DNA of 64,000 bases from an uncultured Actinomycetes bacterium (GTDB taxonomy: Bacteria > Actinomycetota > Thermoleophilia > Gaiellales > Gaiellaceae). The position numbers were made by a program, and so were the translations under genes. Below are positions 1 through 22,880 of this stretch, in pieces. The stretch is taken from the NCBI GenBank assembly GCA_963838795.1, contig CAWISL010000005.1, forward strand, positions 120,092-184,091, written 5' to 3'. The notes below the pieces were generated by a model. That model made no database searches. It was given only the letters and a program-made list of their open reading frames with translations, and had not been told where the DNA came from. The number at the start of each line of letters is the position of its first letter. Position 1 is the first letter of the stretch.

Positions 1-291
1 GTCGAAGGGCTTCTCGCAGAGGACGTGCTTGCCCGCCTCGAGCGCCTGGATCGACCACTCGACGTGCAGCGAGTTCGGCAGCGAGATGTAGACGGCGTCG
101 ATGCCGGGATCGGCGAGGAGTGCCTCGTAGCTTCCGTACGCGCGCTCGATCCCGTGCTCTCGCGCGTACGCCTCCGCGCGCGACTGCTCGCGGCTCGCGA
201 CGGCGACGACCTCCACCTGGTCGGACTCACGCGCACCGGCGAGCACCAGACGGTTGATGTGCGCGGTCGAGATGATCCCCCAGTTCGTCAT
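1..291 (-). CDS. Gfo/Idh/MocA family NAD(P)-dependent oxidoreductase, N-terminal part (3' end runs off the window)
   Basis: Own translation from ATG at 291: [16 protein letters not shown]...[28 protein letters not shown]. This is a Rossmann N-terminus with the EKP motif. ATGA overlap with the stop of the upstream kinase gene. Confidence 0.8.
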
Positions 292-3530: not shown

Positions 3531-3559
3531 TTGACTCCGACGCTTCATCCTGTTACGTT
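3531..3559 (+). promoter_or_regulatory. Candidate sigma70-type promoter for the plus-strand array
   Basis: TTGACT (3531-3536), 17-nt spacer, TACGTT (3554-3559), in the AT-richer divergent intergenic region. Confidence 0.35.
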
Positions 3560-3561
3560 CG

Positions 3562-3599
3562 CCCTTCAAAACCGTTCATGTCCCTTCAAAAGCGATCAT
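3562..3599 (+). promoter_or_regulatory. Tandem 18-nt direct repeat (operator-like), period 20 nt
   Basis: cccttcaaaaccgttcat (3562-3579) and cccttcaaaagcgatcat (3582-3599), 16/18 identical, immediately downstream of the candidate -10. Confidence 0.4.
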
Positions 3600-3725
3600 T
3601 CTGCGAGGGCTGGGGGGAGCTGCTCACATGAGCGGGCAGACGGCGACCGCCGCGGGCTGGGCGGGCGCTCGCGCCTCGCGGGCCTTCCGCCCGGGTCGCT
3701 CGCGCTTCGCCTCGCCGTCGCGCTC

Positions 3726-7274: not shown

Positions 7275-7284
7275 CGAGCCCGTC

Positions 7285-8791: not shown

Positions 8792-8796
8792 ACATC

Positions 8797-10029
8797 GTGG
8801 CCAGCGTCGTCCTGCTCGGCACGCTCGACACGAAGGGGAACGAGTACGCGTTCCTGCGTTCGCTGCTGGACGGCCACGGCGTCGAGACGATCCTGGTCGA
8901 CACCGGCGTTCTCGGGGAGCCTCGCACTCCCCCGGACGTGACGCGCGACGATGTGGCGCGGGCAGCCGGCGCCGACGTCGGCGCGCTCGCCGCCGCGGGC
9001 GACCGCGGGGCCGCGGTGGCGACGATGGCGCGCGGCGCGGCCGAGATCGTCTCGCGGCTCTACGCCGACGAGCGTCTCGACGGCGTCCTCGCGCTCGGAG
9101 GCTCGGGCGGGACGGCAGTCGCCGCCGAGGCCATGCAGGCGCTGCCCGTCGGGGTCCCGAAGCTCATCGTCTCGACAATGGCCTCGGGCGACACCCGCCC
9201 CTACGTGGGCGCGACCGACGTGACGATGACGTACTCCGTCGTCGACATCGCCGGGATCAACGCCGTCTCGTCCCGCATCCTGGCCAACGCCGCGGCCGCC
9301 ATGGCGGGCATGGTGAAGTCGGAGCCGCCTTCGGTCGAGGGCGGGAAGCCACTCGTCGGGGCGACGATGTTCGGGGTCACGACACCGTGTGTGACCGAGG
9401 CCCGGGAGCGCCTCGAGGAGCTCGGCTACGAAGTGCTCGTCTTCCACGCCACCGGCACGGGCGGGCAGTCGATGGAGGCGCTCATGCGGAGCGGCTTCAT
9501 CACCGCCTCGCTGGACGTCACGACAACCGAGCTTGCGGATGACCTCGTCGGCGGCGTTCTTTCCGCGGGCCCCGACCGGCTCGAGGCCGGCGGCGAGCTC
9601 GGGATTCCCCAGGTCGTCTCCCTGGGTGCGCTCGACATGGTCAACTTCGGCGCTGTCGAGACGGTGCCGGTCCAGTTCCACGACCGGCTCCTCTACAAGC
9701 ACAACCCGACGGTCACCCTCATGCGCACGACACCGGAGGAGTGCGCCGAGCTCGGGCGGCGCATCGGCCGCAAGCTCTCGGCGGCAACCGGGCCCGTGAC
9801 GCTGTTCATCCCGCTTCGCGGAGTGTCGCTCATCGCCGTGGACGGCCAGGTCTTCCACGATCCGGAGGCCGACCAGGCGCTCTTCGACGGCCTTCGCGAG
9901 ACGCTCGATCCCGACGTGGACGTGCGCGAGCTGGACACGGACATCAACGACCCCGCCTTCGCCCAGGCAATGGTCGACACCCTCCACGAGCACTATCGGG
10001 CCTGGACGGCCGGGGGAGTGCGAGCATGA
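8797..10029 (+). CDS. UPF0261 / Tm-1 N-terminal-like ATP-binding domain protein (copy 1)
   Basis: GTG 8797. [16 protein letters not shown]...[41 protein letters not shown]...[10 protein letters not shown]...VFHATGTGG. Confidence 0.85.
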
Positions 10030-10871
10030 CGCGCGCGCAGGCTCTGGAACGCCTCCGGGCGCAGGTCCGGGAGGGCCGGCCGATCGTCGGCGCAGGCGCC
10101 GGGACGGGGCTCTCGGCGAAGTGCGCCGAGGCCGGCGGCGCCGACCTCATCATCATCTACAACTCCGGGCGCTATCGCATGGCGGGCAGGGGATCGCTCG
10201 CGGGCCTCCTCCCCTACGGCGACGCCAACGCGATCGTCATGGAGATGGCCGGCGAAGTGCTCCCCGTCGTGGAGTCGACGCCCGTCCTCGCCGGCGTCTG
10301 CGGCACGGACCCGTTTCGCCTCATGCCGGTCTTCCTCCGGCAGCTGCGGGAGGCTGGCTTCACGGGAGTCCAGAACTTTCCCACCGTCGGCCTCATCGAC
10401 GGCACGTTCCGTCAAAACCTCGAGGAGACGGGCATGAGCTACGCGCGCGAGGTGGACGCCATCCGCGCCGCCCGTGAGCTCGACCTCCTTACGTGCCCCT
10501 ACGTCTTCACCCCGGGCGACGCCCGAGCGATGGCGGAGGCGGGAGCCGACGTACTGGTTCCGCACATGGGCCTGACGACAGGAGGGACGATCGGCGCCGG
10601 GACCGCGAAAACGCTGGACGAGTCGATCGAGCTCATCCAGGCCATGCACGACGCAGCCGTGGAGATCGCGCCCGACATCCTCGTGCTCTGCCACGGCGGC
10701 CCGATCGCCGAGCCCGAGGACGCCGCCTACGTGCTCGAGCGCACGCGCGGCGTCGTTGGCTTCTTCGGCGCCTCGAGCATGGAGCGGCTCCCGACCGAAG
10801 TCGCGTTGACCGAGACCGTGAAGCGCTTCAAGGCTATTCCGGCCCGGCCGAGGGAAGGAGAGCGCGTATGA
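10026..10871 (+). CDS. PEP-hydrolase-like / TIM-barrel signal transduction family protein (Tm-1 C-terminal-like)
   Basis: ATGA overlap with copy 1. [45 protein letters not shown]...[16 protein letters not shown]...PHMGLTTGG...[11 protein letters not shown]. Confidence 0.85.
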
Positions 10872-11272
10872 ACGGGAGGTTCGTCCACGAGGCCGACATC
10901 GAACGCGAGCAGCTCGACTGGGGAGGCCTCGCGTGGATCAGCCGGCCTCCTTCCACCGGAGCGCGGCAGCTCACCGTGATCGACGTGTCGCTCGAGCCCG
11001 GGCACGGCCACGACTTTCACACGCACCCCGAGCAGGAGGAGGTCATCGTCGTCCAGGCAGGCGCGATCGAGCAGTGGCTCGAAGGCGAGAAGACGGTTCT
11101 CGGGCCGGGCGAGGCCGTCTTCATCGGCAGGGGCACCGTCCATGCCTCGTTCAACACGGGCCAGGAGACCGCACGCCTGACGGTCGCCCTCGGCCCGTGC
11201 ATCGGCGACGGAGGCTACGAGCTCGTCGACGTCTCTGGTGAGGAGCCCTGGAGGTCGCTGCGTACGCAGTGA
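10868..11272 (+). CDS. Cupin domain protein
   Basis: ATGA overlap. [18 protein letters not shown]...[16 protein letters not shown] (two-His cupin motifs). Confidence 0.8.
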
Positions 11273-12693
11273 GCGTCGACGCCCCCAAGATCGAGACTCT
11301 GGCGCGGGATCTCCGCGACCTCGTCGGCTCCGACGCGGTCGTCGCCGACGCGGACGCCCTGGAGCGCTACTCCGCCGACACCTACTGGAAGGCGCTCGCG
11401 GCGCGGGCGCACGGCACTCCGCTCGGCCTCCCCGACGCCGCCGTCCTGCCGGCCGACGAAGCCGGCGTGGCGTCCGTGCTGCGCTTCGCCAACGAGCGGC
11501 GCCTTCCCGTCGTCCCGCGCGGCGGCGGCTCGGGAAGCCAGGGAGGGGCGGTCCCGGTCGGAGGAGGCATCCTCCTCGACCTCACGCGCCTCGATCGGAT
11601 CGTCGAGATCGACGAGGAATCGCTGACGGTCACCGCCGAGGCCGGCGTCAACGGCGAGATGCTCGAGCGCGCCCTCAACGAGCGAGGGCTCATGCTCCCC
11701 CATTACCCGGCCTCCGTCGACCTGGCGACCGTCGGCGGCTACGTCGCCGCGCGCGGCTCAGGGGTGCTCTCGACGCGCTACGGGAAGATCGAGGACCTCG
11801 TCCTCTCGCTCCGCGTCGCCCTCGCCGACGGCAGCCTGATCGAGACCGTCGCCGTCCCGAGGCATGCAGTCGGGCCGGAGCTGACGCAGCTCTTCGTCGG
11901 CTCCGAGGGCACGCTCGGCGTCGTCACCCGTGCGACCTTGCAGCTGGCCCCGCTCCCGGCGGCGCGGCGCTTCGAGGCGGTCTCGTTCGCGTCGGTGCCC
12001 GAAGGGATCGCCGCCGTGCGCTCCTGCATCTCCCGTGGGCTGCGCCCGTCGGTCGTTCGCATGTACGACGAGGTGGCGACGCGCACGTCGCTCGGCCCCG
12101 TCGTGGAGCGCGAGCTCGAGGGCGTTTGCACGGTCTTCTGCTGTGAAGGCGAGCCGGCCGTCGCCGACGCGGAGGCGGAGACGCTCCTCGCCGTGGCGCG
12201 CGAGCACGGCGGGGTCGTCCTCGACGGCGGGCTCGGCGAGACCTGGTGGCGGCGGCGGTACGAGTTCTACAAGCCCCCGCACCATCCGCAGCTTCCCTCG
12301 ATCTGGGGAACGATCGAAGCCGTCGCCCCCTACGCCCGCATCTACGACGTCTACCGGGCGGTGAAGACGGCGGTCGAGGCCCCCTACGCCGAGCACGGGC
12401 TCACGCTCAAGGTCCATTTCAGCCACTGGTATCCGTGGGGGACGATGATGTACGGGCGCTTCATCGTCCCGGACGGCGGGCCCGAGGCGATCGACCTCCA
12501 CGACCGCATCTGGGAGGACGCGGTGGCGGCGATGCTGAGGGCCGGCGGCGTCATGAACGACCACCACGGCGTCGGGCTGAAGCTCGCGCCGTACATGCGC
12601 GCCCAGCACGGGTCGGCGCTCGACGTCCTGCGGCGGATCAAGGAGGTGCTCGACCCGAACCGGATCATGAACCCCGGCAAGCTCGATCTGTAA
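11269..12693 (+). CDS. FAD-linked oxidase (PCMH-type FAD-binding, GlcD/D-lactate dehydrogenase-like)
   Basis: GTGA overlap. VVPRGGGSGSQGG...VTAEAGV...GGYVAARGSGVLSTRYGKIEDLV...FVGSEGTLGVVT...HHGVGLK...DPNRIMNPGKL. Confidence 0.85.
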   Translation: MSVDAPKIETLARDLRDLVGSDAVVADADALERYSADTYWKALAARAHGTPLGLPDAAVLPADEAGVASVLRFANERRLPVVPRGGGSGSQGGAVPVGGGILLDLTRLDRIVEIDEESLTVTAEAGVNGEMLERALNERGLMLPHYPASVDLATVGGYVAARGSGVLSTRYGKIEDLVLSLRVALADGSLIETVAVPRHAVGPELTQLFVGSEGTLGVVTRATLQLAPLPAARRFEAVSFASVPEGIAAVRSCISRGLRPSVVRMYDEVATRTSLGPVVERELEGVCTVFCCEGEPAVADAEAETLLAVAREHGGVVLDGGLGETWWRRRYEFYKPPHHPQLPSIWGTIEAVAPYARIYDVYRAVKTAVEAPYAEHGLTLKVHFSHWYPWGTMMYGRFIVPDGGPEAIDLHDRIWEDAVAAMLRAGGVMNDHHGVGLKLAPYMRAQHGSALDVLRRIKEVLDPNRIMNPGKLDL

Positions 12694-12719
12694 GGCAGTC
12701 GGCAACGCGAGGAGGACCG

Positions 12720-13628
12720 ATGGGACTGAAGGTGGCGATGCACAACTGGATGCGGCCCGAGCCGATCGAGACGACGATCCGACGTCTGGGCCGGTGCGGC
12801 TACGACGGCATCGAGATCTCGGGAGAGCCCGCGCTCTACGACGCGAAGCACGTTCGCTCCCTGCTCGACGAGAACGGGCTCGAGTGCTGGGGGTCCGTGA
12901 CGCTCATGGTCGGCGGCCGCGACCTCCTGCACGAGGACAAGTACGTGCGCATCGGCAGCGTCCAGTACGTGAAGGACACGCTCGACCTGATCCAGGCCCT
13001 CGGCGGCTCGATCCTGACCGTCGTTCCGTCCACGGTCGGCAAGGTCACGCCGATGTCGACCCCGGAGGAGGAGTGGAAGTGGGCGGTCGAGAGCCTGAAG
13101 GAGTGCCAGGCCCACGCCGAGAAGTGCGGAGTCCGGCTCGCGCTCGAGCCGCTCAACCGCTTCGAAACCTACTTCCTCAACCGTTGCGACCAGGCCCTCG
13201 CGCTGTCGGAGGACGTCGGCGGCGACTGCGGCGTCTGCCTCGACATCTTCCACATGAACATCGAGGAGGCCGACTGGCCGGCCGCCATCAGGGCCGCCGG
13301 CGATCAACTGGTCGACTTCCACGTCGCCGACAACAACCGCATGCCGCCCGGGCAGGGCGCGATCGACTGGGAGCTGATCGTCCGCACGCTAGGCGAGATC
13401 GGCTACGACGGGTATCTCACCGTCGAGTTCGTCGCCACGGTCGATCGCAGCCGCATCTCCGAGCGCACCGAGATCGGGGACGCATCCGAGGCCGACGCGA
13501 GCGTGGGGCTCGAGCAGTTCCTGCGCGATCACGGAACGGGCGCCGTGCCGGAGGAGCTGTACGACCGCTACGTGCAGGAGTCGATCGACTGCTTGCGCCA
13601 GGCCATGAGCGCCGCAGCTCCTGCGTAG
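12720..13628 (+). CDS. Sugar phosphate isomerase/epimerase (xylose-isomerase-like TIM barrel)
   Basis: ATG 12720 after ggagga. GYDGIEISGEP...RLALEPLNRFETYF...DIFHMNIEE...HVADNNRMPPGQGAIDW...GYDGYLTVEF. Confidence 0.85.
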   Translation: MGLKVAMHNWMRPEPIETTIRRLGRCGYDGIEISGEPALYDAKHVRSLLDENGLECWGSVTLMVGGRDLLHEDKYVRIGSVQYVKDTLDLIQALGGSILTVVPSTVGKVTPMSTPEEEWKWAVESLKECQAHAEKCGVRLALEPLNRFETYFLNRCDQALALSEDVGGDCGVCLDIFHMNIEEADWPAAIRAAGDQLVDFHVADNNRMPPGQGAIDWELIVRTLGEIGYDGYLTVEFVATVDRSRISERTEIGDASEADASVGLEQFLRDHGTGAVPEELYDRYVQESIDCLRQAMSAAAPA

Positions 13629-13638
13629 AGGAGATCCG

Positions 13639-14493
13639 ATGGAGCTTCCCTCCTACAACATCGCCGATCTCGCCCCGCCGGACATCAAGGCGTACCTGGG
13701 CGAGAAGGACATCGTGATGATCCCCATCGCGAGCATGGAGCAGCACGGGCCGCACCTGCCGCTCGCGACCGACACGATCCAGGCCGACGAGATCACCCGG
13801 CGGGCGGCCGAGCGGGCCCAGGTCCTCTACACCCCCTGCATCTGGTTCGGCTACTCGCCGCAGCACATGTACGACCCCGGCGACGGAACGGGAACGATCA
13901 CGATCCGCTCGCAGATCCTGCTCGACGTCTACCACGACGTCGCGCGCTCGCTCATCCACCACGGGTTCAGCCGGCTCGTGTTCGTGAACAACCACGGTTC
14001 GAACACGAAGATCATCGATCCGCTGCTGCGACGGATCCGCTACGAGACCGGCGCGTTCGTCACGTTCTCCAAGCTCTACGCCGAGCGCTACCTCGGGCTG
14101 ATCGAGCCGGTCATGGAGAACCCGCCCGAGGAGACGCCCGGCTGGCACTCCAGCGAGCTCGAGACAGCCCAGGTCATGGCCCACGACGAGGGGCTCGTCC
14201 GGATGGACCGCGCCGTGAACCAGAAGGTGAGACGGCCGGACTGGTTCCCCGAGGGCTTCGTCAAGCTGGACGGCGCGCCGGAGGTGGAGTTCCAGGGCTA
14301 TCAGTACTTCCTCTTCCCCACGGATCACGGCGACTTCACGCCGAGCGGCGTGATCGGCAACCCGTTTCGAGCGACTGCCGAGAAGGGCGAGCGCACCTAC
14401 GAGCTCTACGCCGAGCACCTCGCCGCGGCGCTCGAGGAGTTCCAAAGGGTGCCGGTCGACGTGCACACGCGGGAGTGGCTCGAGCGGGCGTGA
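13639..14493 (+). CDS. Creatininase-family amidohydrolase
   Basis: IVMIPIASMEQHGPHLPLATD...FVNNHGSN...GWHSSELETA: the creatininase metal-ligand pattern. Confidence 0.85.
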   Translation: MELPSYNIADLAPPDIKAYLGEKDIVMIPIASMEQHGPHLPLATDTIQADEITRRAAERAQVLYTPCIWFGYSPQHMYDPGDGTGTITIRSQILLDVYHDVARSLIHHGFSRLVFVNNHGSNTKIIDPLLRRIRYETGAFVTFSKLYAERYLGLIEPVMENPPEETPGWHSSELETAQVMAHDEGLVRMDRAVNQKVRRPDWFPEGFVKLDGAPEVEFQGYQYFLFPTDHGDFTPSGVIGNPFRATAEKGERTYELYAEHLAAALEEFQRVPVDVHTREWLERA

Positions 14494-14500
14494 GCGACCT

Positions 14501-15739
14501 GTGACGAACGAGCCGCAGATCGCGCTGATCGGGACCCTCGACACGAAGGGCGACGAGATCGCGTACGTGCGCGAGCGCCTCGCCGGCCTCGGCGTTCGGC
14601 CGGTCGTGATCGACTCAGGGATCCTGGGCGAGCCGGGCACGAGCGCCGACGTCACACGCGAGGAGGTGGCCGGCGAGGCGGGGTACGAGCTGGAGCAGGT
14701 TCAGTCGGCGGGCAGCCGCGGGGCTGCGGTCGAGCTCATGGAGCAGGGAGTGCGTGCCGTCTGCCTGCGCCTCTGGCTCGAGGGCCGTCTGCACGGCGTG
14801 CTCTGCCTGGGCGGGGCCGAGGGAGCGCTCCTGGGAGCAGCCGGGATGCGCGCCCTCCCGGTCGGCGTCCCGAAGCTGATCGTGACTCCCAGCGCCTCGG
14901 GTCGGCGTGCGTTCGGCCCCTTCGTCGGCGAGAGCGACGTCCTCGTCATGCACTCGGTCGTCGACATCCTCGGCCTCAACCCCATCGCGCGGACGGTCTT
15001 CGACAACGCCGCGGCAGCCGTCGCGGGCATGGCTCGAGACGCCGGACGCCCGCTTCAGGACCTGGGCGGCCGGAGCGTGGGCATCACGATGCTCGGCCAC
15101 ACCACTCCCGCGGTGATGCGCATCCGCGCGGGCCTCGCGCTGGCCGGCCACGAGCCGGTCATCTTCCACGCGAACGGCGTCGGCGGCCCGGCGATGGAGA
15201 AGCTCGTCGAGGCGGGCGCGCTCGCGGGCGTGATCGACTACACGCTCTCCGAGCTTGCGAACTCGCTCCTCGACGGGCTCCACGCGACGGGGCCCGACCG
15301 CCTCCGAGTCGCGGGCGCTCATGGCCTCCCGCAGGTGGTGGTTCCGGGCTGCGTCGACTTCTTCAACCAGGGGGCGCTCGACACCGTCCCCGCCGAGTAC
15401 CGCGCCCGCCAGAGCTACTACCACAATCCGGTGGCGACGCTCGTCCGGCTCGAGCCGGGTGAGATGGCCGAGCTCGGAGGCATGGTCGCCGAACGGCTCA
15501 ACGACGCCCAGGGGGCCGTTCACGTCGTCGCCCCGACCCTCGGCTTCTCGCTGGCGGACGTCGAGGGCGGCGACCTCTGGTTTCCGGAGGCCGACGCCGC
15601 ATTCCTGGACGCGCTCGGCTCCGCCCTGCGGCCGGACATCCAGCTCGAGCTCGTCGACACCCACGTGAACGACCCGGAGCTCGCCGATCTCGTCGTCGAG
15701 CGATACCTCGTCCTGGCCTCCGCGCCGTCGGCGACCTGA
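14501..15739 (+). CDS. UPF0261 / Tm-1 N-terminal-like ATP-binding domain protein (copy 2, no adjacent TIM partner)
   Basis: IALIGTLDTKGDEIAY...[29 protein letters not shown]...HSVVDILGLN...IFHANGVGG. Colinear with copy 1. Confidence 0.85.
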   Translation: MTNEPQIALIGTLDTKGDEIAYVRERLAGLGVRPVVIDSGILGEPGTSADVTREEVAGEAGYELEQVQSAGSRGAAVELMEQGVRAVCLRLWLEGRLHGVLCLGGAEGALLGAAGMRALPVGVPKLIVTPSASGRRAFGPFVGESDVLVMHSVVDILGLNPIARTVFDNAAAAVAGMARDAGRPLQDLGGRSVGITMLGHTTPAVMRIRAGLALAGHEPVIFHANGVGGPAMEKLVEAGALAGVIDYTLSELANSLLDGLHATGPDRLRVAGAHGLPQVVVPGCVDFFNQGALDTVPAEYRARQSYYHNPVATLVRLEPGEMAELGGMVAERLNDAQGAVHVVAPTLGFSLADVEGGDLWFPEADAAFLDALGSALRPDIQLELVDTHVNDPELADLVVERYLVLASAPSAT

Positions 15740-15751
15740 GGGACGGAATCG

Positions 15752-16561
15752 ATGCCCGCGGACTTGCGCAGAGCCAGCATCCTCGAGCGGATCCAGCGCG
15801 ACGGGGGCGCGTCGGTCGCCGAGCTGGCGCGCGACTACGGCGTCTCCCAGATCACGGTTCACCGCGACCTGGAGCGACTCGGCCGCGACGGCCTCATCGA
15901 GCGCGTTCACGGAGGCGCTCGCCTCCCCGGCAGCGGTCCCAGCGAGCTCCGCGTGGCGACCGACTGGACGAAGCGGCTGGAGCACGCGCTGCAGGCGAAG
16001 GAGGCGATCGCGGCACGTGCTGCCCGGTTCGTCGAGGACGGCTCGACGATCTTCGTCGACTCCTCCACCACGTGCCTCGTGTTCGCCCGCCACCTGCAGC
16101 GCCTTCCACCGCGTGCGCTCACCCTCGTGACGAACTCGCCGGCGATCGCGGGCGAGCTGCACGCGCAGTCGATCCACGTCGTCGTCACGCCCGGCGAGGT
16201 CGACCAGACGCTCCGGATGATCGGCGGCCGCTGGGCGGCGGAGTTCCTCGGCGACCTCAACATGGAGACGGCCTTCGTCTCGGCCGGAGGCGTCACGCTC
16301 GAGAACGGGCTGACCACGACGCGACGAGCCCTGGCCGACACGCTGAGAGCCGCGTCCGCCTCCTCGGCGAAGACGATCGGGCTCATCGACTCGTCCAAGT
16401 TCGGCCTCTCGGCGCTGCTTTCGATCGCACGCCCGGACGAGCTCGACGCTCTCGTGGTCGACGACGGCCTCCCGCGCAAGACGATCCGCGCCTATCAGGC
16501 TGCGGGCGTCAATCTCATCCTGGCCGAGGGCCAGCCAATCTCCCCTGCCACGAACGCCTAA
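15752..16561 (+). CDS. DeoR family transcriptional regulator
   Basis: N-terminal wHTH: RRASILERIQRDGGASVAELARDYGVSQITVHRDLERL. C-terminal DeoR sugar-binding-type domain. Confidence 0.9.
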   Translation: MPADLRRASILERIQRDGGASVAELARDYGVSQITVHRDLERLGRDGLIERVHGGARLPGSGPSELRVATDWTKRLEHALQAKEAIAARAARFVEDGSTIFVDSSTTCLVFARHLQRLPPRALTLVTNSPAIAGELHAQSIHVVVTPGEVDQTLRMIGGRWAAEFLGDLNMETAFVSAGGVTLENGLTTTRRALADTLRAASASSAKTIGLIDSSKFGLSALLSIARPDELDALVVDDGLPRKTIRAYQAAGVNLILAEGQPISPATNA

Positions 16562-16573
16562 GGAGGACAGCGA

Positions 16574-17572
16574 ATGGCACGTCCCGTCACGCTCTTCACC
16601 GGCCAGTGGGCCGACCTTCCGCTCGACGAGCTCGCCGGCAAGGCCTCCGCCTGGGGCTTCGACGGCCTCGAGCTGGCCTGCTGGGGCGACCACTTCGACG
16701 TCGACGAGGCACTCGCCGAACCCAGGTACGTCGACGGACGCCACGAGATCCTCGCGCGGCACGGCCTGCAGTGCTTCGCGATCTCCACGCACCTCGTCGG
16801 CCAGGCGGTGTGCGACCCCGTCGATGAGCGACACCGGGCGATCCTGCCCCCCGACGTCTGGGGGGACGGCGATCCGGAAGGGGTGCGGCAGCGCGCGGCC
16901 GACAAGGTCAAGGACACCGCCCGGGCCGCTGCCAGGTTCGGGGTCACCCAGGTGAACGGCTTCACGGGCTCGTCCATCTGGCATCTTCTCTACTCGTTCC
17001 CGCCCAACGACTTCGATGCGATCGAGGCCGGCTACCGGGACTTCGCGGAACGCTGGGGCCCGATCGTCGACGTCTTCGAGGCCGAGGGCGTTCGCTACGG
17101 GCTCGAGGTGCATCCGACCGAGATCGCCTACGACTTCGTGACGACGCGCAAGACGCTCGAGGCGATCGACCGGCGCGAAGGCTTCGGAATCAACTTCGAC
17201 CCGAGCCACTTCGCCCATCAGTCCCTCGACTCGGCCGCGTTCGTGGACGAGTTCGCCGACCGCATCTACCACGTCCACGTCAAGGATTCGCAGAAGAATC
17301 TCGACGGCCGCAGCTCGATCCTCGGCGGCCACCTGAACTTCGGCGAGGCCGGGCGCGGCTGGGACTTCGTCTCGCCGGGGCACGGGGACGTGGACTTCGA
17401 GTCGCTCTTCCGCGCCCTCAATCGGATCGGCTACGAAGGGCCGCTCTCGATCGAGTGGGAAGACGCGGGGATGGACCGCGAGTGGGGCGCCCAGGACGCG
17501 TTGGCGTTCGTGCGCAGGAGCGACTTTACCCCGTCCGCGCTCGCCTTCGACGCGGCCTACGAGAGGAGCTGA
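16574..17572 (+). CDS. Sugar phosphate isomerase/epimerase (xylose-isomerase-like TIM barrel)
   Basis: [15 protein letters not shown]...[12 protein letters not shown]...NFDPSHF...HVHVKDS...[12 protein letters not shown]. Confidence 0.85.
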
Positions 17573-17574
17573 CG

Positions 17575-18741
17575 ATGGCGGACGAGGGCGAGGTCGGCTT
17601 CCTCACGATGGGGCGGGCCGGGGGCACGGACGAGGCCCGGACGATCGGGGTCGGCATGCTCGGCTATGCGTTCATGGGCAAGGCCCATTCGAACGCCTAT
17701 CGCAAGATCGCCTACATGACGTGGCCACCGCCGCTCGTGCCGCGGCTCGTGGCGATCTCCGGGCGGACCGAGGAGGCGGTCGCGGAGGCCGCGCGCCGCT
17801 ACGGGTTCGAGAGCTACGCGACCGACTGGCACGAGCTGATCGCAAACGACGAGGTCGAGCTCTTCGACAACAGCGGGCCCAACGACCTGCATGCGGAGCC
17901 CACGATCGCGGCGGCCGAGGCCGGCAAGCACGTCGTCTGCGAGAAGCCGCTCGCGCGCACCGCCGACGAGAGCTACGAGGTCTGGCAGCGCGTCGCAGCG
18001 GCGGGCGTGAAGCACATGTGCGCCTTCAACTACCGGTTCGTCCCGGCGGTACGGTTGGCCCGGGAGCTGCTCGAGGCCGGCGACCTGGGCGACATCTACC
18101 ACTTCCGGGGCCGGTATCTCCAGGAGTGGGGTGACATCGACGACGAGGTGTGGCGCTTCGACCGCGCAGCGGCCGGCTCGGGCGCGCTCGGCGACCTCGG
18201 CGCGCACGTGATCGACCTGGCGCGCTACCTCGTGGGCGAAATCGAGTCGGTGAGCGGCGCCACCCGCACGTTCAAGGAGGGGCGTGACGTCGACGACGCC
18301 TTCGAGTCGATCGTCACGTTCGCGAACGGCGCCGTCGGCACGATCGAGGCCTCACGCTTCTGTCCCGGACGGAAGAATGCCTTCGCCTGGGAGATCAACG
18401 GCTCGAAGGGCTCGATCGCCTTCGACCTCGAGCGGCTGAACGAGCTGCAGGTGCACCTTCGCGACTCGAAGCCCGGTGATCGGGCCCAGGGGTTCCGAAG
18501 CGTGCTCGTCTCCGAAGCCGATCACCCTTTCTGGGAGCACTGGTGGCCACACGGCCACATCATCGGCTGGGAGCACTCGTTCGTGCACGAGCTGCACCAC
18601 CTCCTCACCGCAATCGCGGAGGGCGGGGAGATCGGGCCGCACGGAGCGACGTTCGAGGACGGCTACCGGGCGGCCGAGGTCTGCGACGCGATCGTGCGCT
18701 CGAGCGACTCGGGCCGGCGCGAGGAGGTCGCATATCGCTAG
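17575..18741 (+). CDS. Gfo/Idh/MocA family oxidoreductase
   Basis: IGVGMLGYAFMGKAHSNAY...AGKHVVCEKPLA...; C-terminal alpha/beta domain. Confidence 0.9.
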   Translation: MADEGEVGFLTMGRAGGTDEARTIGVGMLGYAFMGKAHSNAYRKIAYMTWPPPLVPRLVAISGRTEEAVAEAARRYGFESYATDWHELIANDEVELFDNSGPNDLHAEPTIAAAEAGKHVVCEKPLARTADESYEVWQRVAAAGVKHMCAFNYRFVPAVRLARELLEAGDLGDIYHFRGRYLQEWGDIDDEVWRFDRAAAGSGALGDLGAHVIDLARYLVGEIESVSGATRTFKEGRDVDDAFESIVTFANGAVGTIEASRFCPGRKNAFAWEINGSKGSIAFDLERLNELQVHLRDSKPGDRAQGFRSVLVSEADHPFWEHWWPHGHIIGWEHSFVHELHHLLTAIAEGGEIGPHGATFEDGYRAAEVCDAIVRSSDSGRREEVAYR

Positions 18742-19564
18742 CCCCCGCCTGAACCGCCTCTTCGCCGCGGACGGGCGCTGCTTCGACGTCGCCGTCGACC
18801 ACGGCTTCTTCGGAGAGAGCTCGTTCCTCACCGGGATCGAAGACCTCGAGAGCGCCGTCCGAACGCTCGTGCAGGCGGCACCAGACGCGATCCAGCTCTC
18901 ACCCGGCCAGGCGCCGATTTTGCAACGCATAGCCGGCCCCGTGAAGCCGGCGCTCGTCCTGCGCACCGACGTCGCGAACGTCTACGGCCCGAGCCCCCCG
19001 TCGACGCTCTGGAGCGAGCTCGTCGAGGACGCCGTCGGGCAGGCGATTCGGCTCGACGCCACCTGCGTGGTCGTCAACCTGCTCTCGCTCCCCGGAGAGC
19101 CCGAGCTCCACCGGCAATGCGTCCGCAACGTGTCGACCCTCCGCGCGGCCTGCGAGCCCTGCGGCATGCCCTTGATGGTCGAGCCGCTGGCGATGAAGCA
19201 GGGCGACTCCGGCTACGGCGTGAACGGGGATGCCAACACGGTCGTGACGCTCGTCCGCCAGGCGGTCGAGCTGGGCGCCGACGTCATCAAGGCCGATCCC
19301 ACGGACGACCTGGACGACTACGGCCGGGTCGTCGAGGCCGCCGGCCGCGTGCCGCTGCTCGTCCGCGGCGGTGGGCGTGCGCCCGACGACGAGATCCTGA
19401 GGCGCACGGAGGCGGTACTCCGACACGGTGCCGCCGGGATCGTCTACGGGCGCAACGTCGTCCAGCATGCGGATCCCGTCGGGATGACGCTCGCGCTCAT
19501 GGCGGTCGTCCACGAGGGCGCGTCTGCCGAGCAGGCGCTCGCAGGCCTCGCCGCCCGTGCCTGA
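18734..19564 (+). CDS. Class I aldolase (DhnA/FbaB/LacD-type, DeoC superfamily); start codon unresolved
   Basis: RLNRLFAADGRCFDVAVDHG...VVVNLL...PLMVEPLA...GADVIKADPT...VRGGG...GIVYGRN. No ATG/GTG/TTG near the N-terminus. In-frame ATC at 18734 lies 6 nt after GGAGG (18723-18727); a CTG lies at 18749. Confidence 0.7.
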   Translation: MASPRLNRLFAADGRCFDVAVDHGFFGESSFLTGIEDLESAVRTLVQAAPDAIQLSPGQAPILQRIAGPVKPALVLRTDVANVYGPSPPSTLWSELVEDAVGQAIRLDATCVVVNLLSLPGEPELHRQCVRNVSTLRAACEPCGMPLMVEPLAMKQGDSGYGVNGDANTVVTLVRQAVELGADVIKADPTDDLDDYGRVVEAAGRVPLLVRGGGRAPDDEILRRTEAVLRHGAAGIVYGRNVVQHADPVGMTLALMAVVHEGASAEQALAGLAARA

Positions 19565-20717
19565 GCGGGTCGTCCGCTTCGGGCTCGTAGGCGGAGGCCT
19601 CATGGGACGCGAGTTCGCGAGCGCGGCCGCCCGCTGGATGCACCTCGGCGCCCTCGGCGTTCGGCCCGAGCTGGCGGTGGTCTGCGACGCAAACCCAGAC
19701 GTGCTCGCGTGGTACGAACGGCTCGAGCCGGCGCCGCGACTCCTCTCCGACTACCGCGAGCTGCTCGCGGACGACTCGGTCGAAGCTGTCTACTGCGCCG
19801 TCCCTCACCACCTTCACGCGGAGATCTACGGCGCCTGCCTCCGGGCCGGGAAGCACCTGCTGGGCGAGAAGCCCTTCGGCATCGACCTCGCCGCGAACCG
19901 GGCGATCGGCGCCGAGATCGACGCACACCCCGAGCTCCTGGTCCGCTGCTCCTCGGAGCTTCCGTTCTATCCCGGAGGCCAACGCGTGTGGCGCTGGATC
20001 GCCGAGCGCCGCTACGGACGCGTGCTCGAGGTGCGCTCGGCCTTCCTGCACTCCAGCGACCTCGATCCTGAGAAGCCGATCAACTGGAAGCGGCGCGCCG
20101 CCGAGAACGGCGAGTACGGCGTCATGGGCGACCTCGGCATGCACGCGCTGCACCTGCCGCTGCGGGCCGGGTGGTTCCCGAGCGACGTCCGCGCGATCCT
20201 GTCCGACGTGGTGCGCGAGCGCCCGGACGGGCTCGGCGGCACGGCTCCCTGCGACACGTGGGACAACGCCCTCCTCCTCTGCGAGGTGGAAGAGGACGGC
20301 GAGGTGTTCCCGCTTCGGATCGAGACGAAGCGGATCGCCCCGGGCGAGACGAACACGTGGATCATCGAGGTGGACGGAACGGAGGGGTCGATCGCCTACA
20401 CCACCAAGCAGCCCAAGACGCTGCGCTGGATGGCGTACGAGCCCGGCGGCGCGCAAGCCTGGAGCGTGCTCGACCTGGGGTCGGAGTCGGCCTACCCCTC
20501 GATCACCGGGGCGATCTTCGAGTTCGGCTTCTCGGACGCGATCCTGCAGATGTGGGCCGCCTTCCTGGACGAGCTCGCCCACGGGCGCGACGGCATGCGC
20601 CAGCCCTTCCACTGCGCGACGCCGGAGGAGGCGGCTGCGACCCATCGGGTCTTCACGGCGGCGCTCGAGTCGCAGGCGACCTCGTCGGTCGTGGCCCTCA
20701 GCGGCGCGCCCGCGTGA
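19557..20717 (+). CDS. Gfo/Idh/MocA family oxidoreductase
   Basis: RFGLVGGGLMGREF...AGKHLLGEKPFG. GTG start overlaps the aldolase stop. Confidence 0.85.
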   Translation: MPERVVRFGLVGGGLMGREFASAAARWMHLGALGVRPELAVVCDANPDVLAWYERLEPAPRLLSDYRELLADDSVEAVYCAVPHHLHAEIYGACLRAGKHLLGEKPFGIDLAANRAIGAEIDAHPELLVRCSSELPFYPGGQRVWRWIAERRYGRVLEVRSAFLHSSDLDPEKPINWKRRAAENGEYGVMGDLGMHALHLPLRAGWFPSDVRAILSDVVRERPDGLGGTAPCDTWDNALLLCEVEEDGEVFPLRIETKRIAPGETNTWIIEVDGTEGSIAYTTKQPKTLRWMAYEPGGAQAWSVLDLGSESAYPSITGAIFEFGFSDAILQMWAAFLDELAHGRDGMRQPFHCATPEEAAATHRVFTAALESQATSSVVALSGAPA

Positions 20718-21951
20718 GCAGGTCTCCGGCAGCGACGCCGCGGAGCGACGCATCCACCAGCTCCACCGGGTGAAAGGCAGGGAGCGGACGCCCTGCCCGG
20801 CGGAGTGCCGCCGTCACCTGGACGAGGCAGCCGGGGTTCGCGGCCGCATACGCGTCGGGCTCGACGGCGAGCACCCGTTCGGCCTTGCGTCGCCCCAGCT
20901 CGAGCGCAGCCTCGGGCTGCACGAGGTTGTAGATGCCGGCGCTTCCGCAGCAAAGAGCCTGATCCTCGGGCTCGGCGAGGTCGAGCCCGGGAATCGTCGC
21001 GAGCACGGCTCGCTGCTCCACCCGCACCCGCTGAGCGTGGAGAAGGTGGCAGGAGTCCTGGAGCGCGACGCGCAGCTCGAGGGGGCTCCGCTCGGCTCGG
21101 GGCTCGAGCCCGGCGAGGAGCTCGGCGACGTCGCGTACCCGGGCGGAGAAGGCGGCCGCTCGCTCGGCATAGACGGGGTCGTCCACGAGCAGGTGCGCGT
21201 AGTCCTTCAGGTTCGAACCGCAGCCGGCGGCGTTGGAGACCACGAAGTCGACAGCGGCCCCCTCGAATGTCTCGATGGTGTGCCGAGCATGCTCGAAGCC
21301 CTTGTCACGCCGCCCCGCGTGCACCGCCAGGGCGCCGCAGCAGCCCTGCGCCCGTAGTGCCACGACCTCGAAGCCGTAGGTCGCCAGGACTCGCGCCGTG
21401 GCGACGTTAACGTCGCCGAAGAGGACACGCTGGACGCAGCCCGTGAGGAGGCCCACGCGGCCGATCCGCTCGCCCACAGGCTCGGTGCGCTCGGGCGGCT
21501 CGGCTCCCGCACGCCAGGGCGGCGCCAGGTCGGTGAGCGGGCGCAGAAGCCCCGGAAGGGGCATCCTGCGCCCGGCCGGCGCGAGTCTGAGGGCCTTCCG
21601 CAGCCGGCCTGGGTGCGCGACGACGGCCAGGACGGCGGATCGGAGAGCGCGCTCGCGGCGCGGGCGACTGTACTCCTGCTCGATCGTCGCGCGCGTTTGC
21701 TCGATCAGGCGGTCATAGAGGACGCCGGAGGGGCAGGAGGTGACGCAGGCCATGCAGCCGAGGCAGCGATCGAAGTGCTCGACCACCGTCGGGTTGAGGT
21801 GGAGCGTTCCGTCCACGAGCCCTTCCATCAGGTAGATGCGCCCGCGCGGGGAGTCCATCTCCTCCCGCCAGAGACCCCACGTGGGGCAGGTCGGCAGGCA
21901 GAAGCCGCAGTGGACGCAGGTACTGACGAGCTCGCGGTCGATCTCCGTCAC
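20698..21951 (-). CDS. glcF: Glycolate oxidase iron-sulfur subunit
   Basis: Two ferredoxin-type Cys clusters (CVHCGFCLPTCP, CLGCMACVTSCP) plus two CCG domains (GCCG, CCGSAG). GTGA overlap with the glcE stop. Confidence 0.85.
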   Translation of the reverse strand: MTEIDRELVSTCVHCGFCLPTCPTWGLWREEMDSPRGRIYLMEGLVDGTLHLNPTVVEHFDRCLGCMACVTSCPSGVLYDRLIEQTRATIEQEYSRPRRERALRSAVLAVVAHPGRLRKALRLAPAGRRMPLPGLLRPLTDLAPPWRAGAEPPERTEPVGERIGRVGLLTGCVQRVLFGDVNVATARVLATYGFEVVALRAQGCCGALAVHAGRRDKGFEHARHTIETFEGAAVDFVVSNAAGCGSNLKDYAHLLVDDPVYAERAAAFSARVRDVAELLAGLEPRAERSPLELRVALQDSCHLLHAQRVRVEQRAVLATIPGLDLAEPEDQALCCGSAGIYNLVQPEAALELGRRKAERVLAVEPDAYAAANPGCLVQVTAALRRAGRPLPAFHPVELVDASLRGVAAGDLLTRARR

Positions 21952-22880
21952 GCGAGGACTCCCTCAGGGTCGAAGTGCTCTCTCACCCGCTCGGCGAGCG
22001 GGGACCACGGCTGCTCGTAGGGTTGAGGCAGATAGGCGAAGCAGGTGCTGCCGATCCGGACGAGCGCTTCGGGGAGCTCCTCCAAAGCGGCTGCGAGCTC
22101 GCCCGCCGCGAAGGCTCCCCGCGAGCGGGAGCCGAGCTGGGACGCCACCACCTGGTTCCAGACACCGCCGTCCTCCTCCCCGCCGAGGAGGGCGCGGCCC
22201 CGGTCGATCTGCGCCGAGGTCGCCCCCACGCCGCCCTCGAAGAGGACGACGAGGACGGACCGCTCCTCGGCCCAGAGAAGATCCAGCGCGCTCGGGGCGA
22301 GCGTCGAGTGGATCAGCTTCCGGACGATGGCCTGGACGTCGCCGGGCGTGGAGACGGGGATCACCAGCGTTCGGCTCGACTCCGGACGTGGGTGGAGGCG
22401 CAAGCTCGCGCGCGCGATCAGCCCCAGGCGCCCGTGGGAGCCGCAGAAGAGCTTGGCCAGGTCGTAGCCGGCGACGTTCTTCACGACCTTGCCGCCCGCG
22501 TTGGCGATGGTGCCGTCGGCGAGAACCACGGTCACCCCGAGGACGAGGTCGCGCGGTCGTCCGTACCGGTAGGCGCGGGGGCCGAAGAGGTCGCCCGCGA
22601 TGGCCGCACCGATCGTCGGGTCGCCCGGCGCGTCAAGCGCGAGCATCTGGCCGTGCTCGGCCAGTCGCTCGTTCAGCGCCGAGAGGTGGATGCCCGCCTC
22701 GACGGTGACGGTAAGGTCGCCGGCCTCGTGCTCGAGCAGCCGGTTGAGATATCGCGTCGAGACGACGAGCTCGCCGCCCGCGCGCTCGATCGAGACGCGC
22801 CGGCCTTCGCGTGCCGCCTGCCGGAGGATCTCCGCGGCCTGGGCGATTGCCAGGGGCTCGGCTTCAAAGGCGCTCGGCAA
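21948..22880 (-). CDS. glcE: Glycolate oxidase FAD-binding subunit
   Basis: LTVTVEAGIHLSALNERL...GGKVVKNVAGYDLAKLFCGSHGRLGLI. Best start is TTG 22880, just inside the glcD 3' end. Confidence 0.7.
   Translation of the reverse strand: MPSAFEAEPLAIAQAAEILRQAAREGRRVSIERAGGELVVSTRYLNRLLEHEAGDLTVTVEAGIHLSALNERLAEHGQMLALDAPGDPTIGAAIAGDLFGPRAYRYGRPRDLVLGVTVVLADGTIANAGGKVVKNVAGYDLAKLFCGSHGRLGLIARASLRLHPRPESSRTLVIPVSTPGDVQAIVRKLIHSTLAPSALDLLWAEERSVLVVLFEGGVGATSAQIDRGRALLGGEEDGGVWNQVVASQLGSRSRGAFAAGELAAALEELPEALVRIGSTCFAYLPQPYEQPWSPLAERVREHFDPEGVLA

Follow-up and report, generated by a model that had tools for sequence, protein, structure and literature searches.

An uncharacterised catabolic operon of Gaiellaceae and other bacteria combines two UPF0261 partnerships with a Liv-type importer

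Introduction

UPF0261 is a large protein family for which a single catalytic function was shown, in 2025. MarK of Novosphingobium aromaticivorans, a UPF0261 protein with a solved crystal structure (9MPY), is a kinase that phosphorylates acetovanillone and other phenols and converts ATP to ADP (J Biol Chem 2025; PMC12624787). In plants, a UPF0261 domain is fused to a TIM barrel in the protein Tm-1 (PMC5028733). The PF09370 family, to which this barrel belongs, has had a solved structure since 2007 and no activity assigned since. Here, we describe a gene array at positions 8797-20717 of a 64,000-nucleotide stretch of DNA (the window) from an uncultured Gaiellaceae bacterium, in which two UPF0261 genes, one of them coupled to a PF09370 gene, are embedded among sugar-type enzymes downstream of a Liv-type (HAAT) importer.

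Three groups of pathways offer further points of comparison. The acid-sugar pathways of the DUF1537 type (LtnD/DenD–OtnI–OtnK–OtnC) employ a dehydrogenase, a xylose-isomerase-like (XI-like) isomerase, a kinase and a class II aldolase-type decarboxylase. The array follows the same logic of dehydrogenase, XI-like oxo-acid isomerase, kinase of an unusual family and C-C cleavage, and a Thermus cluster described below is a close parallel to them. In contrast to these pathways, the array lacks a DUF1537 protein, its match to OtnI reaches 55 bits against a cutoff of 325, and the window contains no class II aldolase. The inositol pathway of Thermotoga maritima (IolG/IolM/IolN/IolO) shares with the array a Gfo/Idh/MocA (Gfo) dehydrogenase, a creatininase-family hydrolase and an XI-like epimerase, whereas the array scores far below the equivalog cutoffs, adds a flavin adenine dinucleotide (FAD)-linked oxidase and UPF0261, and uses another type of importer. 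The levoglucosan (LgdA/B1/B2/C) and 3-keto-glycoside pathways (PMC7676230, PMC10066097; 6A3F, 8RO4) place a Gfo dehydrogenase beside an XI-like TIM-barrel hydratase, and the array has two members of each family. It differs from the levoglucosan pathway in a first Gfo dehydrogenase (Gfo1) that stays below the equivalog cutoff, in its Liv-type importer and in four extra conserved genes without a role there; no LgdB1-type gene was detected.

No characterised pathway that explains the locus was found in the literature searched. The locus is a real, strongly conserved and uncharacterised catabolic operon of a kind that is already known, namely a substrate-inducible catabolic cluster that joins enzymes of 3-keto-sugar type to kinases of a family in which one member has been characterised. 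New are the near-constant pairing of one UPF0261 clade with a creatininase-family hydrolase, a separable trio of cupin, UPF0261 and PF09370 genes, and the combination of both UPF0261 partnerships with a Liv-type importer.

A conserved core with separable modules

An earlier note, made from the sequence alone, had described a tight plus-strand array of thirteen genes behind a five-gene Liv-type importer. Searches with Pfam and NCBIfam profile hidden Markov models confirmed the array, recovered all five Liv/HAAT genes directly upstream and matched every named family at its coordinates, but the array holds 12 genes, which is also the sum of the families listed in that note. Its junctions are overlaps of 4 or 8 nucleotides (nt) or gaps of 2-26 nt. 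ATGA/GTGA overlaps join the first four genes, and the ATGA coupling proposed between UPF0261 copy 1 and the TIM barrel is visible in the sequence (8797-10029 and 10026-10871). The array had been presented as one unit, but it is a composite of a seven-gene core, a mobile trio and a lineage-specific pair.

Conservation was followed by scanning UPF0261 copy 2 against one genome per species (GTDB), which yielded 80 loci at 70-95% identity, and by tblastn of all window proteins against these loci. Presence counts refer to the 54 loci of at least 19 kb (long loci). The genes of the array, all on the plus strand, are the following.

8797..10029, +, UPF0261 copy 1, trio, Tm-1/PF09370-partnered clade; PF06792 225 bits, PF23189 313 bits, NF002674 585 bits, Tm-1 (3WRY) 301 bits; proposed ATP-dependent kinase; 32 of 54 long loci
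10026..10871, +, PF09370 'PEP hydrolase-like' (PEP, phosphoenolpyruvate) TIM barrel, trio; PF09370 444 bits, 2P10 382 bits; proposed lyase acting on the phosphorylated product; 29 of 54
10868..11272, +, Cupin_2 protein, third trio member; PF07883 56 bits; proposed isomerase
11269..12693, +, FAD-linked oxidase of the GlcD/D-lactate-dehydrogenase type, core; PF01565 (FAD_binding_4) and PF02913 (FAD-oxidase_C); 52 of 54
12720..13628, +, XI-like TIM barrel 1 (XI1) of the ketose 3-epimerase/IolO/YcjR type, core; PF01261; 51 of 54
13639..14493, +, creatininase-family metallohydrolase, core; PF02633 207 bits; 51 of 54
14501..15739, +, UPF0261 copy 2, creatininase-partnered clade; PF06792 181 bits, PF23189 235 bits, MarK (9MPY) 220 bits; proposed core kinase
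15752..16561, +, DeoR-family regulator, core; PF08220 (HTH_DeoR) 49 bits, PF00455 (DeoRC sensor) 130 bits; 54 of 54
16574..17572, +, XI-like TIM barrel 2 (XI2) of the 2-hydroxy-3-keto-glucal hydratase/SCO6571 type, core; 2ZDS 475 bits, 8RO4 158 bits; 54 of 54
17575..18741, +, Gfo/Idh/MocA dehydrogenase 1 (Gfo1), levoglucosan-dehydrogenase-like, core; NF052479 356 bits, 6A3F and 4H3V 314 bits; 52 of 54
18734..19564, +, DhnA/archaeal-type class I aldolase (DeoC/LacD family), Gaiellaceae only; PF01791 112 bits, PDB 2QJG; 15 of 54
19557..20717, +, Gfo/Idh/MocA dehydrogenase 2 (Gfo2), Gaiellaceae only and always with the aldolase; 15 of 54

The core, FAD oxidase–XI1–creatininase/UPF0261 copy 2–DeoR–XI2–Gfo1, is present in 51-54 of the 54 long loci. 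Its order recurs at this frequency in loci from different species and is far beyond chance. XI2 and Gfo1 are fixed neighbours in 51 long loci, DeoR and XI2 in 50, and the FAD oxidase and XI1 in 48, while UPF0261 copy 2 and the creatininase homologue adjoin in 51, in one order 36 times and in the reverse 15 times. The gene combination singled out by the earlier note is conserved in other genomes, with more than 50 species carrying the core. The 80 loci belong to the Gaiellaceae, Thermoleophilaceae, Solirubrobacteraceae and Dormibacterota, with one genome each from Chloroflexi and Eisenbacteria, and the Solirubrobacteraceae include the cultured Solirubrobacter phytolaccae, S. deserti and S. taibaiensis as well as Candidatus S. 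pratensis. Clustering of all open reading frames across the loci revealed no further recurrent family. Outside the array, the Liv genes occur in 24-41 long loci (four of the five in 39-41), a XylB-type FGGY kinase in nine and GlcDEF in seven.

The two UPF0261 proteins as candidate kinases

Both window copies exceed the Pfam gathering cutoff of 27 bits for both UPF0261 domains and are 44% identical to each other. Three of the four motif blocks that they had been reported to share stand as given, but in the fourth copy 2 reads IGTLDTKG and not LGTLDTKG. Like MarK, to which they are about 35% identical (220-235 bits), they have two domains and retain the ATP motif and the residues G195, H219 and H304. 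Like UPF0261 copy 2, MarK has no PF09370 gene among its described neighbours. MarK differs in acting on phenols upstream of a biotin carboxylase, whereas the array has no such genes, and in the partners of the window copies: copy 1 has an obligate partner in the TIM barrel, and copy 2 is partnered by a creatininase-family protein.

An alignment of both copies with MarK, Tm-1 and 33 relatives, in MarK numbering, compares the PF09370-partnered clade A with the creatininase-partnered clade B. All 18 sequences of clade A and all 14 of clade B keep the ATP-site residues D14-T15-K16 and the substrate-site residues G195, H219 and H304, save for one gap at H304 in clade A, and N305 is likewise invariant in both clades. 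The acetovanillone pocket (T196, F283, I285, H348) is not kept: T196 is Val in clade A and His or Gln in clade B, F283 is Met in clade A and stays Phe in clade B, I285 is Asn in both, and H348 is Ile or Leu in clade A and Ala or Ser in clade B. By these residues, neither window copy is a MarK orthologue. In a neighbour-joining tree, copy 1 groups with Tm-1 and with the proteins from rhizobia, haloarchaea, Thermomicrobium and Rubrobacter. Copy 2 belongs to a separate clade, and MarK and a Thermus protein fall outside the PF09370-partnered clade.

UPF0261 copy 2 is the only ATP-binding enzyme of the seven-gene core, and DeoR-family sensors typically bind sugar phosphates. The earlier note had named the UPF0261 proteins as candidate kinases; they are good candidates, since MarK provides a precedent (PMC12624787), both copies keep the D-T-K motif and G195, H219 and H304, a DeoR regulator accompanies copy 2 in the core, and a Thermus cluster (see below) points in the same direction. 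To judge from the conserved residues, both are probably active phosphotransferases that use ATP and act on substrates different from, and more polar than, those of MarK. That note had also stated that no biochemical function was assigned to the bacterial pair of UPF0261 and TIM barrel. Since 2025 this no longer holds for UPF0261 itself (PMC12624787) but, within the literature searched, still does for its combination with PF09370.

HpeHI and AcvAB were considered as further UPF0261 proteins and rejected, since they are of the PEP-utilising dikinase type (PMC12624787). A search for UPF0261 proteins gave 4,671 clusters at 50% identity, and the family occurs in bacteria, in archaea and in all land plants. 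The Brucella gene BRA1168/BMEII0128/BAB2_1127 belongs to the family; it was recovered as attenuating in a mouse signature-tagged mutagenesis screen and differs between the vaccine strain S19 and virulent strains (PMC2364660).

The trio of cupin, UPF0261 and PF09370 genes

UPF0261 and PF09370 genes adjoin in 28 of 29 loci. Together with the cupin gene they move as a block. In Gaiellaceae this block precedes the FAD oxidase, in many Thermoleophilaceae it follows Gfo1, and elsewhere it is found on the far side of the importer; in Solirubrobacter species, the trio is absent within 10 kb. Outside this lineage, tblastn on annotated plasmids provided eight contexts. The pair adjoins in seven of them, and in the eighth (Haloferax) both genes belong to one cluster. 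A transporter and a regulator usually accompany the pair, and a cupin gene is next or close to it in five, including Haloterrigena, Haloferax, NGR234 and S. meliloti. The contexts are the following.

Thermomicrobium roseum: Liv ABC–UPF0261–PF09370
Haloferax volcanii pHV3: UPF0261–Liv ABC … PF09370–cupin
Haloterrigena: PF09370–cupin–UPF0261
Rubrobacter: the pair, preceded by a solute:sodium symporter
Streptomyces SAT1: only the pair
Rhizobium NXC14: the pair, with cupin–Gfo–sugar ABC–GntR in divergent orientation
NGR234: sugar ABC–y4oU–y4oV–cupin–Gfo/Idh/MocA–σ54 regulator
S. meliloti 1021 pSymA (L091, 7727-13479): CUT1 ABC–trio–M24 creatinase/prolidase-like–MFS, rebuilt with tblastn and Pfam from an unannotated record

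The pair corresponds to the two halves of tomato Tm-1, as had been stated: copy 1 matches the N-terminal half at 301 bits, and the plant protein is a fusion of both (PMC5028733). Copy 1 belongs to the Tm-1 clade and is 44% identical to Tm-1 (UPF0261 with a PF09370/TBST TIM barrel; 3WRY). In contrast to Tm-1, whose known role is the binding of tobamovirus replicase, the window halves are separate, translationally coupled genes in a catabolic operon. A second protein of 684 amino acids (P0274) carries PF09370 at the N-terminus and UPF0261 at the C-terminus, the reverse of the plant order, and is a fusion independent of plant Tm-1. Tight adjacency, translational coupling and two independent fusions make a physical and functional partnership of UPF0261 and PF09370 very likely.

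The window PF09370 protein is far above the Pfam cutoff of 33.8 bits and 63% identical to the structural-genomics entry 2P10 (Mll9387). The name 'PEP hydrolase-like' stems from a structural-genomics fold assignment; in the literature searched, we found no PEP or phosphonopyruvate hydrolase assay of PF09370, and no functional study of the UPF0261 and PF09370 pair, including Mll9387, y4oU/y4oV and At5g66420. In a Foldseek search with an AlphaFold model (predicted local distance difference test score, pLDDT, 68.6, loops below 50), 2P10 was followed by the PEP mutase/isocitrate lyase superfamily and by HpaI/HpcH pyruvate aldolases, at template modelling (TM) scores of about 0.55. The superfamily neighbours are 2-methylisocitrate lyase, dimethylmalate lyase and oxaloacetate acetylhydrolase. 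At this modest level of structural similarity, the model agrees, if weakly, with a lyase that would cleave a C-C bond in an α-oxo or α-hydroxy acid. The cupin fold is used by sugar-acid isomerases such as IolB and KduI. With such a cupin, a kinase candidate and a TIM barrel of lyase fold, the trio reads naturally, by analogy, as isomerise–phosphorylate–cleave.

The creatininase homologue and a cluster in Thermus

The partner of UPF0261 copy 2 scores below all NCBIfam equivalog cutoffs: 119 against 235 bits for creatininase (TIGR04448), 92 against 172 for MftE and 78.7 against 245 for IolN (NF041098). By these scores it is a member of the creatininase family and not a creatininase orthologue. 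The metal ligands seem to be present in E34-x-H36, D45, H119, H170 and E173, which we take to correspond to those of creatininase. An apparent creatininase–UPF0261 fusion of 652 amino acids (P0060) was rejected as a frameshift read-through with an out-of-frame, Arg/Ser-rich linker, and no such fusion was found among the best 150 family representatives. In the literature searched, nothing links creatininase to 3-keto-sugar pathways.

The best plasmid-borne relatives of the hydrolase, 48% identical, are encoded on Thermus megaplasmids. On pTF19b of Thermus thermophilus TF19 (L090, 8642-17688), creatininase-family and UPF0261 genes are followed by a class II aldolase/adducin gene and by TctCBA, a tripartite tricarboxylate transporter, and the cluster lies opposite GntR–Zn dehydrogenase–CBS–XI-like TIM barrel genes. 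The UPF0261 gene of strain AA1-1 (L088) is cut short by a transposase. As judged from its gene content, UPF0261 is the only kinase candidate of the cluster and stands upstream of a phosphate-dependent aldolase family. The cluster looks like a DUF1537 acid-sugar pathway with UPF0261 in the position of the kinase and a carboxylate importer.

Sugar-type enzymes of the array

The closest characterised relative of Gfo1 is levoglucosan dehydrogenase (NF052479, 356 bits against a cutoff of 650; 6A3F, 314 bits), and it is less like scyllo-inositol/L-glucose dehydrogenase (5YA8, 168 bits). Gfo2 reaches 81 bits with NF052479, below the cutoff. XI2, which adjoins Gfo1, matches the uncharacterised SCO6571 (2ZDS) at 475 bits, 2-hydroxy-3-keto-glucal hydratase (8RO4) at 158 bits and IolE at 30 bits. 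By these matches, the closest characterised relatives of Gfo1 and XI2 are enzymes of 3-keto pyranoses. GMC oxidoreductases or very large ThuA-domain proteins adjoin the core in other phyla, and both are linked to 3-keto-sugar chemistry. In Solirubrobacter (L074, 2572-6075; L083, 934-7262), ThuA-domain proteins of 941-1167 amino acids stand beside the core together with XylB-type FGGY and ROK genes, and some of them also carry PKD or glucose/sorbosone-dehydrogenase domains. On an Arthrobacter plasmid, orthologues of Gfo1 (44% identical) and XI2 (59% identical) are part of a cassette that comprises two XI-like TIM-barrel and two Gfo genes, lies close to a CUT1 sugar ABC importer and resembles the levoglucosan pathway (PMC7676230, PMC10066097). 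XI1 does not match the short XI-like gene of this cassette.

XI1 resembles ketose 3-epimerases, Thermotoga IolO (TM0416) and the 3-keto-glucoside epimerase YcjR; with 145 bits, it stays below the cutoff of 300 for IolO, a 5-keto-L-gluconate epimerase (NF041099). D-lactate dehydrogenase, glycolate oxidase and alkyl-DHAP synthase are roughly equidistant from the FAD oxidase. The class I aldolase of the Gaiellaceae pair remains below the equivalog cutoffs for fructose-bisphosphate aldolase (126 against 299) and ADH synthase (105 against 430) and contains a GADVIK motif, which we take to hold the candidate Schiff-base lysine.

The end of Gfo2 overlaps that of GlcF, one of three convergent genes, by 20 nt.

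20698..24303, −, GlcF, GlcE and GlcD (glycolate-oxidase-like), convergent with the array, from the profile search

GlcDEF lies beside the aldolase–Gfo2 pair in seven of the 15 long loci with the pair, a hint that a C2 product, for instance glycolaldehyde or glycolate, may be formed there.

The importer and an upstream FGGY kinase

The HAAT set is complete, with two BPD_transp_2 permeases, a Peripla_BP_6 binding protein and two ATPases.

3531..4697, +, Liv/HAAT permease 1; PF02653 125 bits; start uncertain, with indels relative to the ENA contig described below
4694..5761, +, Liv/HAAT permease 2; PF02653 111 bits
5856..7274, +, Liv-type substrate-binding protein, 472 amino acids; PF13458 (Peripla_BP_6) 169 bits
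7285..8073, +, LivG-type ATPase; PF00005 and PF12399
8066..8791, +, LivF-type ATPase; PF00005

The binding protein scores far below the LivJ and UrtA cutoffs (26 against 477 and 37 against 493). Its nearest PDB entries are 4ZPJ and the aromatic-acid-binding proteins 4EY3 and 4EVQ; the latter two, its nearest relatives of defined ligand, bind benzoate derivatives but match at only 54-72 bits.

The earlier note had argued from the lack of a recognisable sugar kinase. This is correct for 8797-20717, where no FGGY, PfkB or ROK kinase was found, but a XylB-type FGGY kinase is encoded nearby in a divergent upstream operon, which weakens the premise.

288..3424, −, divergent operon: VOC protein (3119-3424), XI-like TIM barrel (2109-3122), HbpS-like protein (1720-2112), XylB-type FGGY kinase (about 288-1723)

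The kinase matches the xylulokinase model TIGR01312 at 532 bits (cutoff 380). Its orthologues, 66-76% identical, are found next to the core in Dormibacterota, in four Solirubrobacter loci and in Gaiellaceae other than that of the window. The gene is intact in the ENA contig (L001, 265-1698), but in the window two 1-nt insertions with about 80 nt between them disrupt it; the frameshift is probably an assembly difference.

A possible pathway and its alternatives

Our preferred reading, which we hold tentatively and with slightly less than even confidence, is that the array degrades a polyhydroxylated compound from outside the cell, which derives from a sugar or cyclitol and is probably an acid, a lactone or a glycoside, through 3-keto chemistry and with the UPF0261 proteins as kinases. 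The hints favour an acidic substrate, given the benzoate-derivative-binding structural relatives of the binding protein and the carboxylate importers that accompany the homologous Thermus pair. In the order of steps that we propose, the Liv-type ABC system and the 12 enzyme and regulator genes would form one transcription unit of 17 genes assembled from separable modules. Once the substrate has been taken up by the Liv-type system, Gfo1, as a relative of levoglucosan and scyllo-inositol dehydrogenases, would oxidise a secondary alcohol of the ring to a ketone, next to which XI2, as a relative of 2-hydroxy-3-keto-glucal hydratase, would hydrate or eliminate. The FAD oxidase (D-2-hydroxyacid-dehydrogenase type) and XI1 (ketose-epimerase/oxo-acid-isomerase type) would set the position or configuration of the carbonyl group. 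UPF0261 copy 2 would phosphorylate the product with ATP, as MarK does, the creatininase-family metallohydrolase would open the ring hydrolytically or cleave a C-C, C-N or C-O bond, as IolN does with a 1,3-diketone, and DeoR would sense a phosphorylated intermediate. Cupin, UPF0261 copy 1 and PF09370 would then act as an end module that isomerises, phosphorylates and cleaves, with the TIM barrel as a lyase of the PEP/pyruvate fold; such a module would be analogous, though unrelated, to IolB–IolC–IolJ or KduI–KdgK–KdgA. The class I aldolase and the second Gfo dehydrogenase would be an addition of the Gaiellaceae.

Several observations weigh against this proposal. Each specific enzyme assignment is below its NCBIfam equivalog cutoff (levoglucosan dehydrogenase, IolO, IolN, creatininase), a Liv-type importer is unusual for sugars, and the nearby XylB-type FGGY kinase could supply the sugar kinase step. 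The neighbours of the trio vary widely, from aromatic-type enzymes in Thermomicrobium to an M24 creatinase/prolidase-like protein in S. meliloti, so that trio and core may act on different substrates. The AlphaFold model of PF09370 is of moderate quality (pLDDT 68.6, with TM about 0.55 to lyases), and the one substrate proven for UPF0261 is not a sugar but a phenol (PMC12624787).

Two more specific routes are both improbable, and to a similar degree. The array could encode a variant of the levoglucosan/3-keto-glycoside pathway, in which Gfo1 would oxidise an anhydrosugar or glycoside at C3, elimination and hydration would be the task of the XI-like barrels, a Gfo enzyme would turn 3-keto-glucose into glucose by reduction, and the remaining enzymes would handle the released aglycone. 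The best characterised relatives of Gfo1 (NF052479, 6A3F), the match of XI2 to 8RO4, the Arthrobacter cassette, the GMC and ThuA-domain neighbours in other phyla and a set of two Gfo and two XI-like TIM-barrel genes that mirrors LgdA/B1/B2/C (PMC7676230, PMC10066097) all argue for it. Yet Gfo1 is well below its cutoff (356 against 650), XI1 lacks a counterpart in the Arthrobacter cassette, Gfo2 is absent outside Gaiellaceae among the 54 long loci, the importer is of the Liv and not the CUT1 sugar type, and the known pathway has no role for the FAD oxidase, XI1, the creatininase homologue and UPF0261 copy 2, which are always conserved. Alternatively, an inositol isomer or derivative could follow a Thermotoga-type route, with one or two oxidations to a diketo-inositol, ring opening by the creatininase-family hydrolase like IolN and epimerisation of the keto acid by XI1 like IolO; cupin, UPF0261 and the lyase or aldolase would stand in for IolB, IolC and IolJ, and DeoR would play the part of IolR, which in B. 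subtilis is a DeoR-family regulator. The array indeed matches the iol operon family for family (IolN 79, IolO 145, IolG 109 and IolE 48 bits in NCBIfam), TM0416 is among the best PDB matches of XI1, and scyllo-inositol dehydrogenase 5YA8 matches Gfo1 at 168 bits. All these matches are, however, far below the equivalog cutoffs. Moreover, the hydrolase is nearer to creatininase (119 bits) and MftE (92) than to IolN (79), XI2 matches the keto-glucal hydratase better (158 bits) than it matches IolE (30), the genes scanned, which were those of the array region and its flanks, yielded no homologue of IolD or IolA, and inositol importers are normally of the CUT2 or MFS type.

Substrates other than sugars or cyclitols appear even less probable. 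The earlier note had suggested a nitrogen-containing or cyclic, lactam- or amide-like substrate. In this reading, a nitrogen-containing ring (lactam, cyclic amidine or creatinine-like) would be opened at the expense of ATP: UPF0261 would transfer phosphate to the oxygen of an amide or enol, and hydrolysis would fall to the creatininase-family enzyme or to the TIM barrel, in the manner of 5-oxoprolinase or hydantoinase. We consider this very unlikely. Membership of the hydrolase in the creatininase family (PF02633 207 bits; TIGR04448 as best NCBIfam match), its adjacency to UPF0261 copy 2 in almost every locus and in both orders, the M24 creatinase/prolidase-like protein behind the S. meliloti trio and the existence of Liv-type urea and amide importers, though the UrtA match is weak, are in line with it; but the core and the flanks examined contain no deaminase, aminotransferase, amidase or ammonia-handling gene, the surrounding conserved genes and the DeoR regulator are of the sugar type, and the sole apparent creatininase–UPF0261 fusion is the artefact P0060. 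Least probable of all, in our view, is an aromatic or phenolic, lignin-derived substrate with the UPF0261 proteins as MarK-like phenol kinases. It would agree with the only proven activity of the family, on acetovanillone and related phenols (PMC12624787), with the benzoate derivatives bound by 4EY3 and 4EVQ, and with Thermomicrobium roseum, where Liv–UPF0261–PF09370 is followed by fumarylacetoacetate-hydrolase, ABM monooxygenase, xanthine-dehydrogenase-type and PEP-utilising genes. Against it stand the changes in the aromatic pocket of MarK (T196, I285 and H348 in both clades, F283 only in clade A), the rhizobial trios beside CUT1 sugar importers, two of three with a Gfo/Idh/MocA gene, and the finding that no AcvCDE/HpeCBA-type carboxylase, phosphatase or ring-cleavage dioxygenase occurs among the genes scanned or in the conserved loci.

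Significance

The locus offers two functionally distinct UPF0261 clades side by side, each with a defined partner. In the boldest interpretation, which we regard as unlikely but worth stating, UPF0261 and PF09370, often with a cupin, would be an unrecognised two-component kinase–lyase that replaces the unrelated KdgK/KdgA- or IolC/IolJ-type end modules and is fused in plants as Tm-1. The sister UPF0261 clade and the creatininase-family hydrolase would form an ATP-linked pair for ring opening or C-C cleavage, and together they would constitute a new pathway for an abundant soil compound in Thermoleophilia and Dormibacterota. Solving the locus would name a pathway of many abundant, poorly studied soil Actinomycetota and probably provide the first substrate for a Tm-1-type enzyme. 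The dedicated binding protein and the DeoR sensor can be screened for ligands, cultured hosts for genetics are available for the core (Solirubrobacter species) and for the trio (S. meliloti, NGR234, H. volcanii), and the compact Thermus cluster in a culturable thermophile could serve to find the substrate of the creatininase/UPF0261 pair. In S. phytolaccae KCTC 29190, the core occupies about 35.7-43.2 kb of NZ_JAPDDP010000010.1 (L074, 7628-15075); the trio is located at about 727.7-730.3 kb of pSymA in S. meliloti 1021, at y4oU-X in NGR234 and at HVO_RS01065 to HVO_RS01105 of pHV3 in H. volcanii.

Gene starts, assembly differences and flanking genes

The window has a G+C content of 70% and is almost identical to a 383-kb soil-metagenome contig (ENA ERZ25039469, contig_15466); its nearest relatives are metagenome-assembled genomes of Gaiellaceae (Thermoleophilia). 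Mismatches and small indels are scattered between the two sequences, some of them near the livH start (3500-3640), and look like assembly or polishing differences.

The aldolase gene has no ATG, GTG or TTG start between 18476 and 18869. Within 18721-18736, an ATC at 18734 sits 6 nt after GAGGAGG; as the start, it results in the 8-nt overlap with the upstream gene. This ATC is kept in 16 loci of close relatives, the ENA copy of the contig included, two of which have a different upstream gene, and more distant orthologues, which share the RLNRLF N-terminus, carry an ATG or GTG three codons from it. The gene thus likely starts at 18734 as a case of ATC initiation. The publicly annotated start, GTG at 18869, was rejected because it truncates the DeoC domain, and for Gfo2 the public start at 19602, which cuts the Rossmann N-terminus, was replaced by 19557. 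A promoter and terminator scan of 3000-21500 gave no promoter and a single weak terminator-like site, which falls within the second permease gene; shuffled sequence gave more, and the scan is uninformative for an actinobacterium with 70% G+C.

Beyond GlcDEF, 24530-29331 holds a second sugar importer of the XylFGH/multiple-monosaccharide type on the minus strand, beside a ROK-family regulator (27964-29331, plus strand). Judged by its genes, the region is a carbohydrate-use island. Farther downstream, an ATP synthase operon on the minus strand (39638-53935) is interrupted: atpC (39638-40159) and atpD (40081-41763) are followed by an Opp/Dpp-type ABC importer (42208-47980) and a Kelch-repeat protein (48051-49019). 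Beyond the Kelch gene, a single open reading frame of 842 codons (49036-51564) carries ATP synthase alpha and gamma domains, either as a true fusion or through a lost stop codon.

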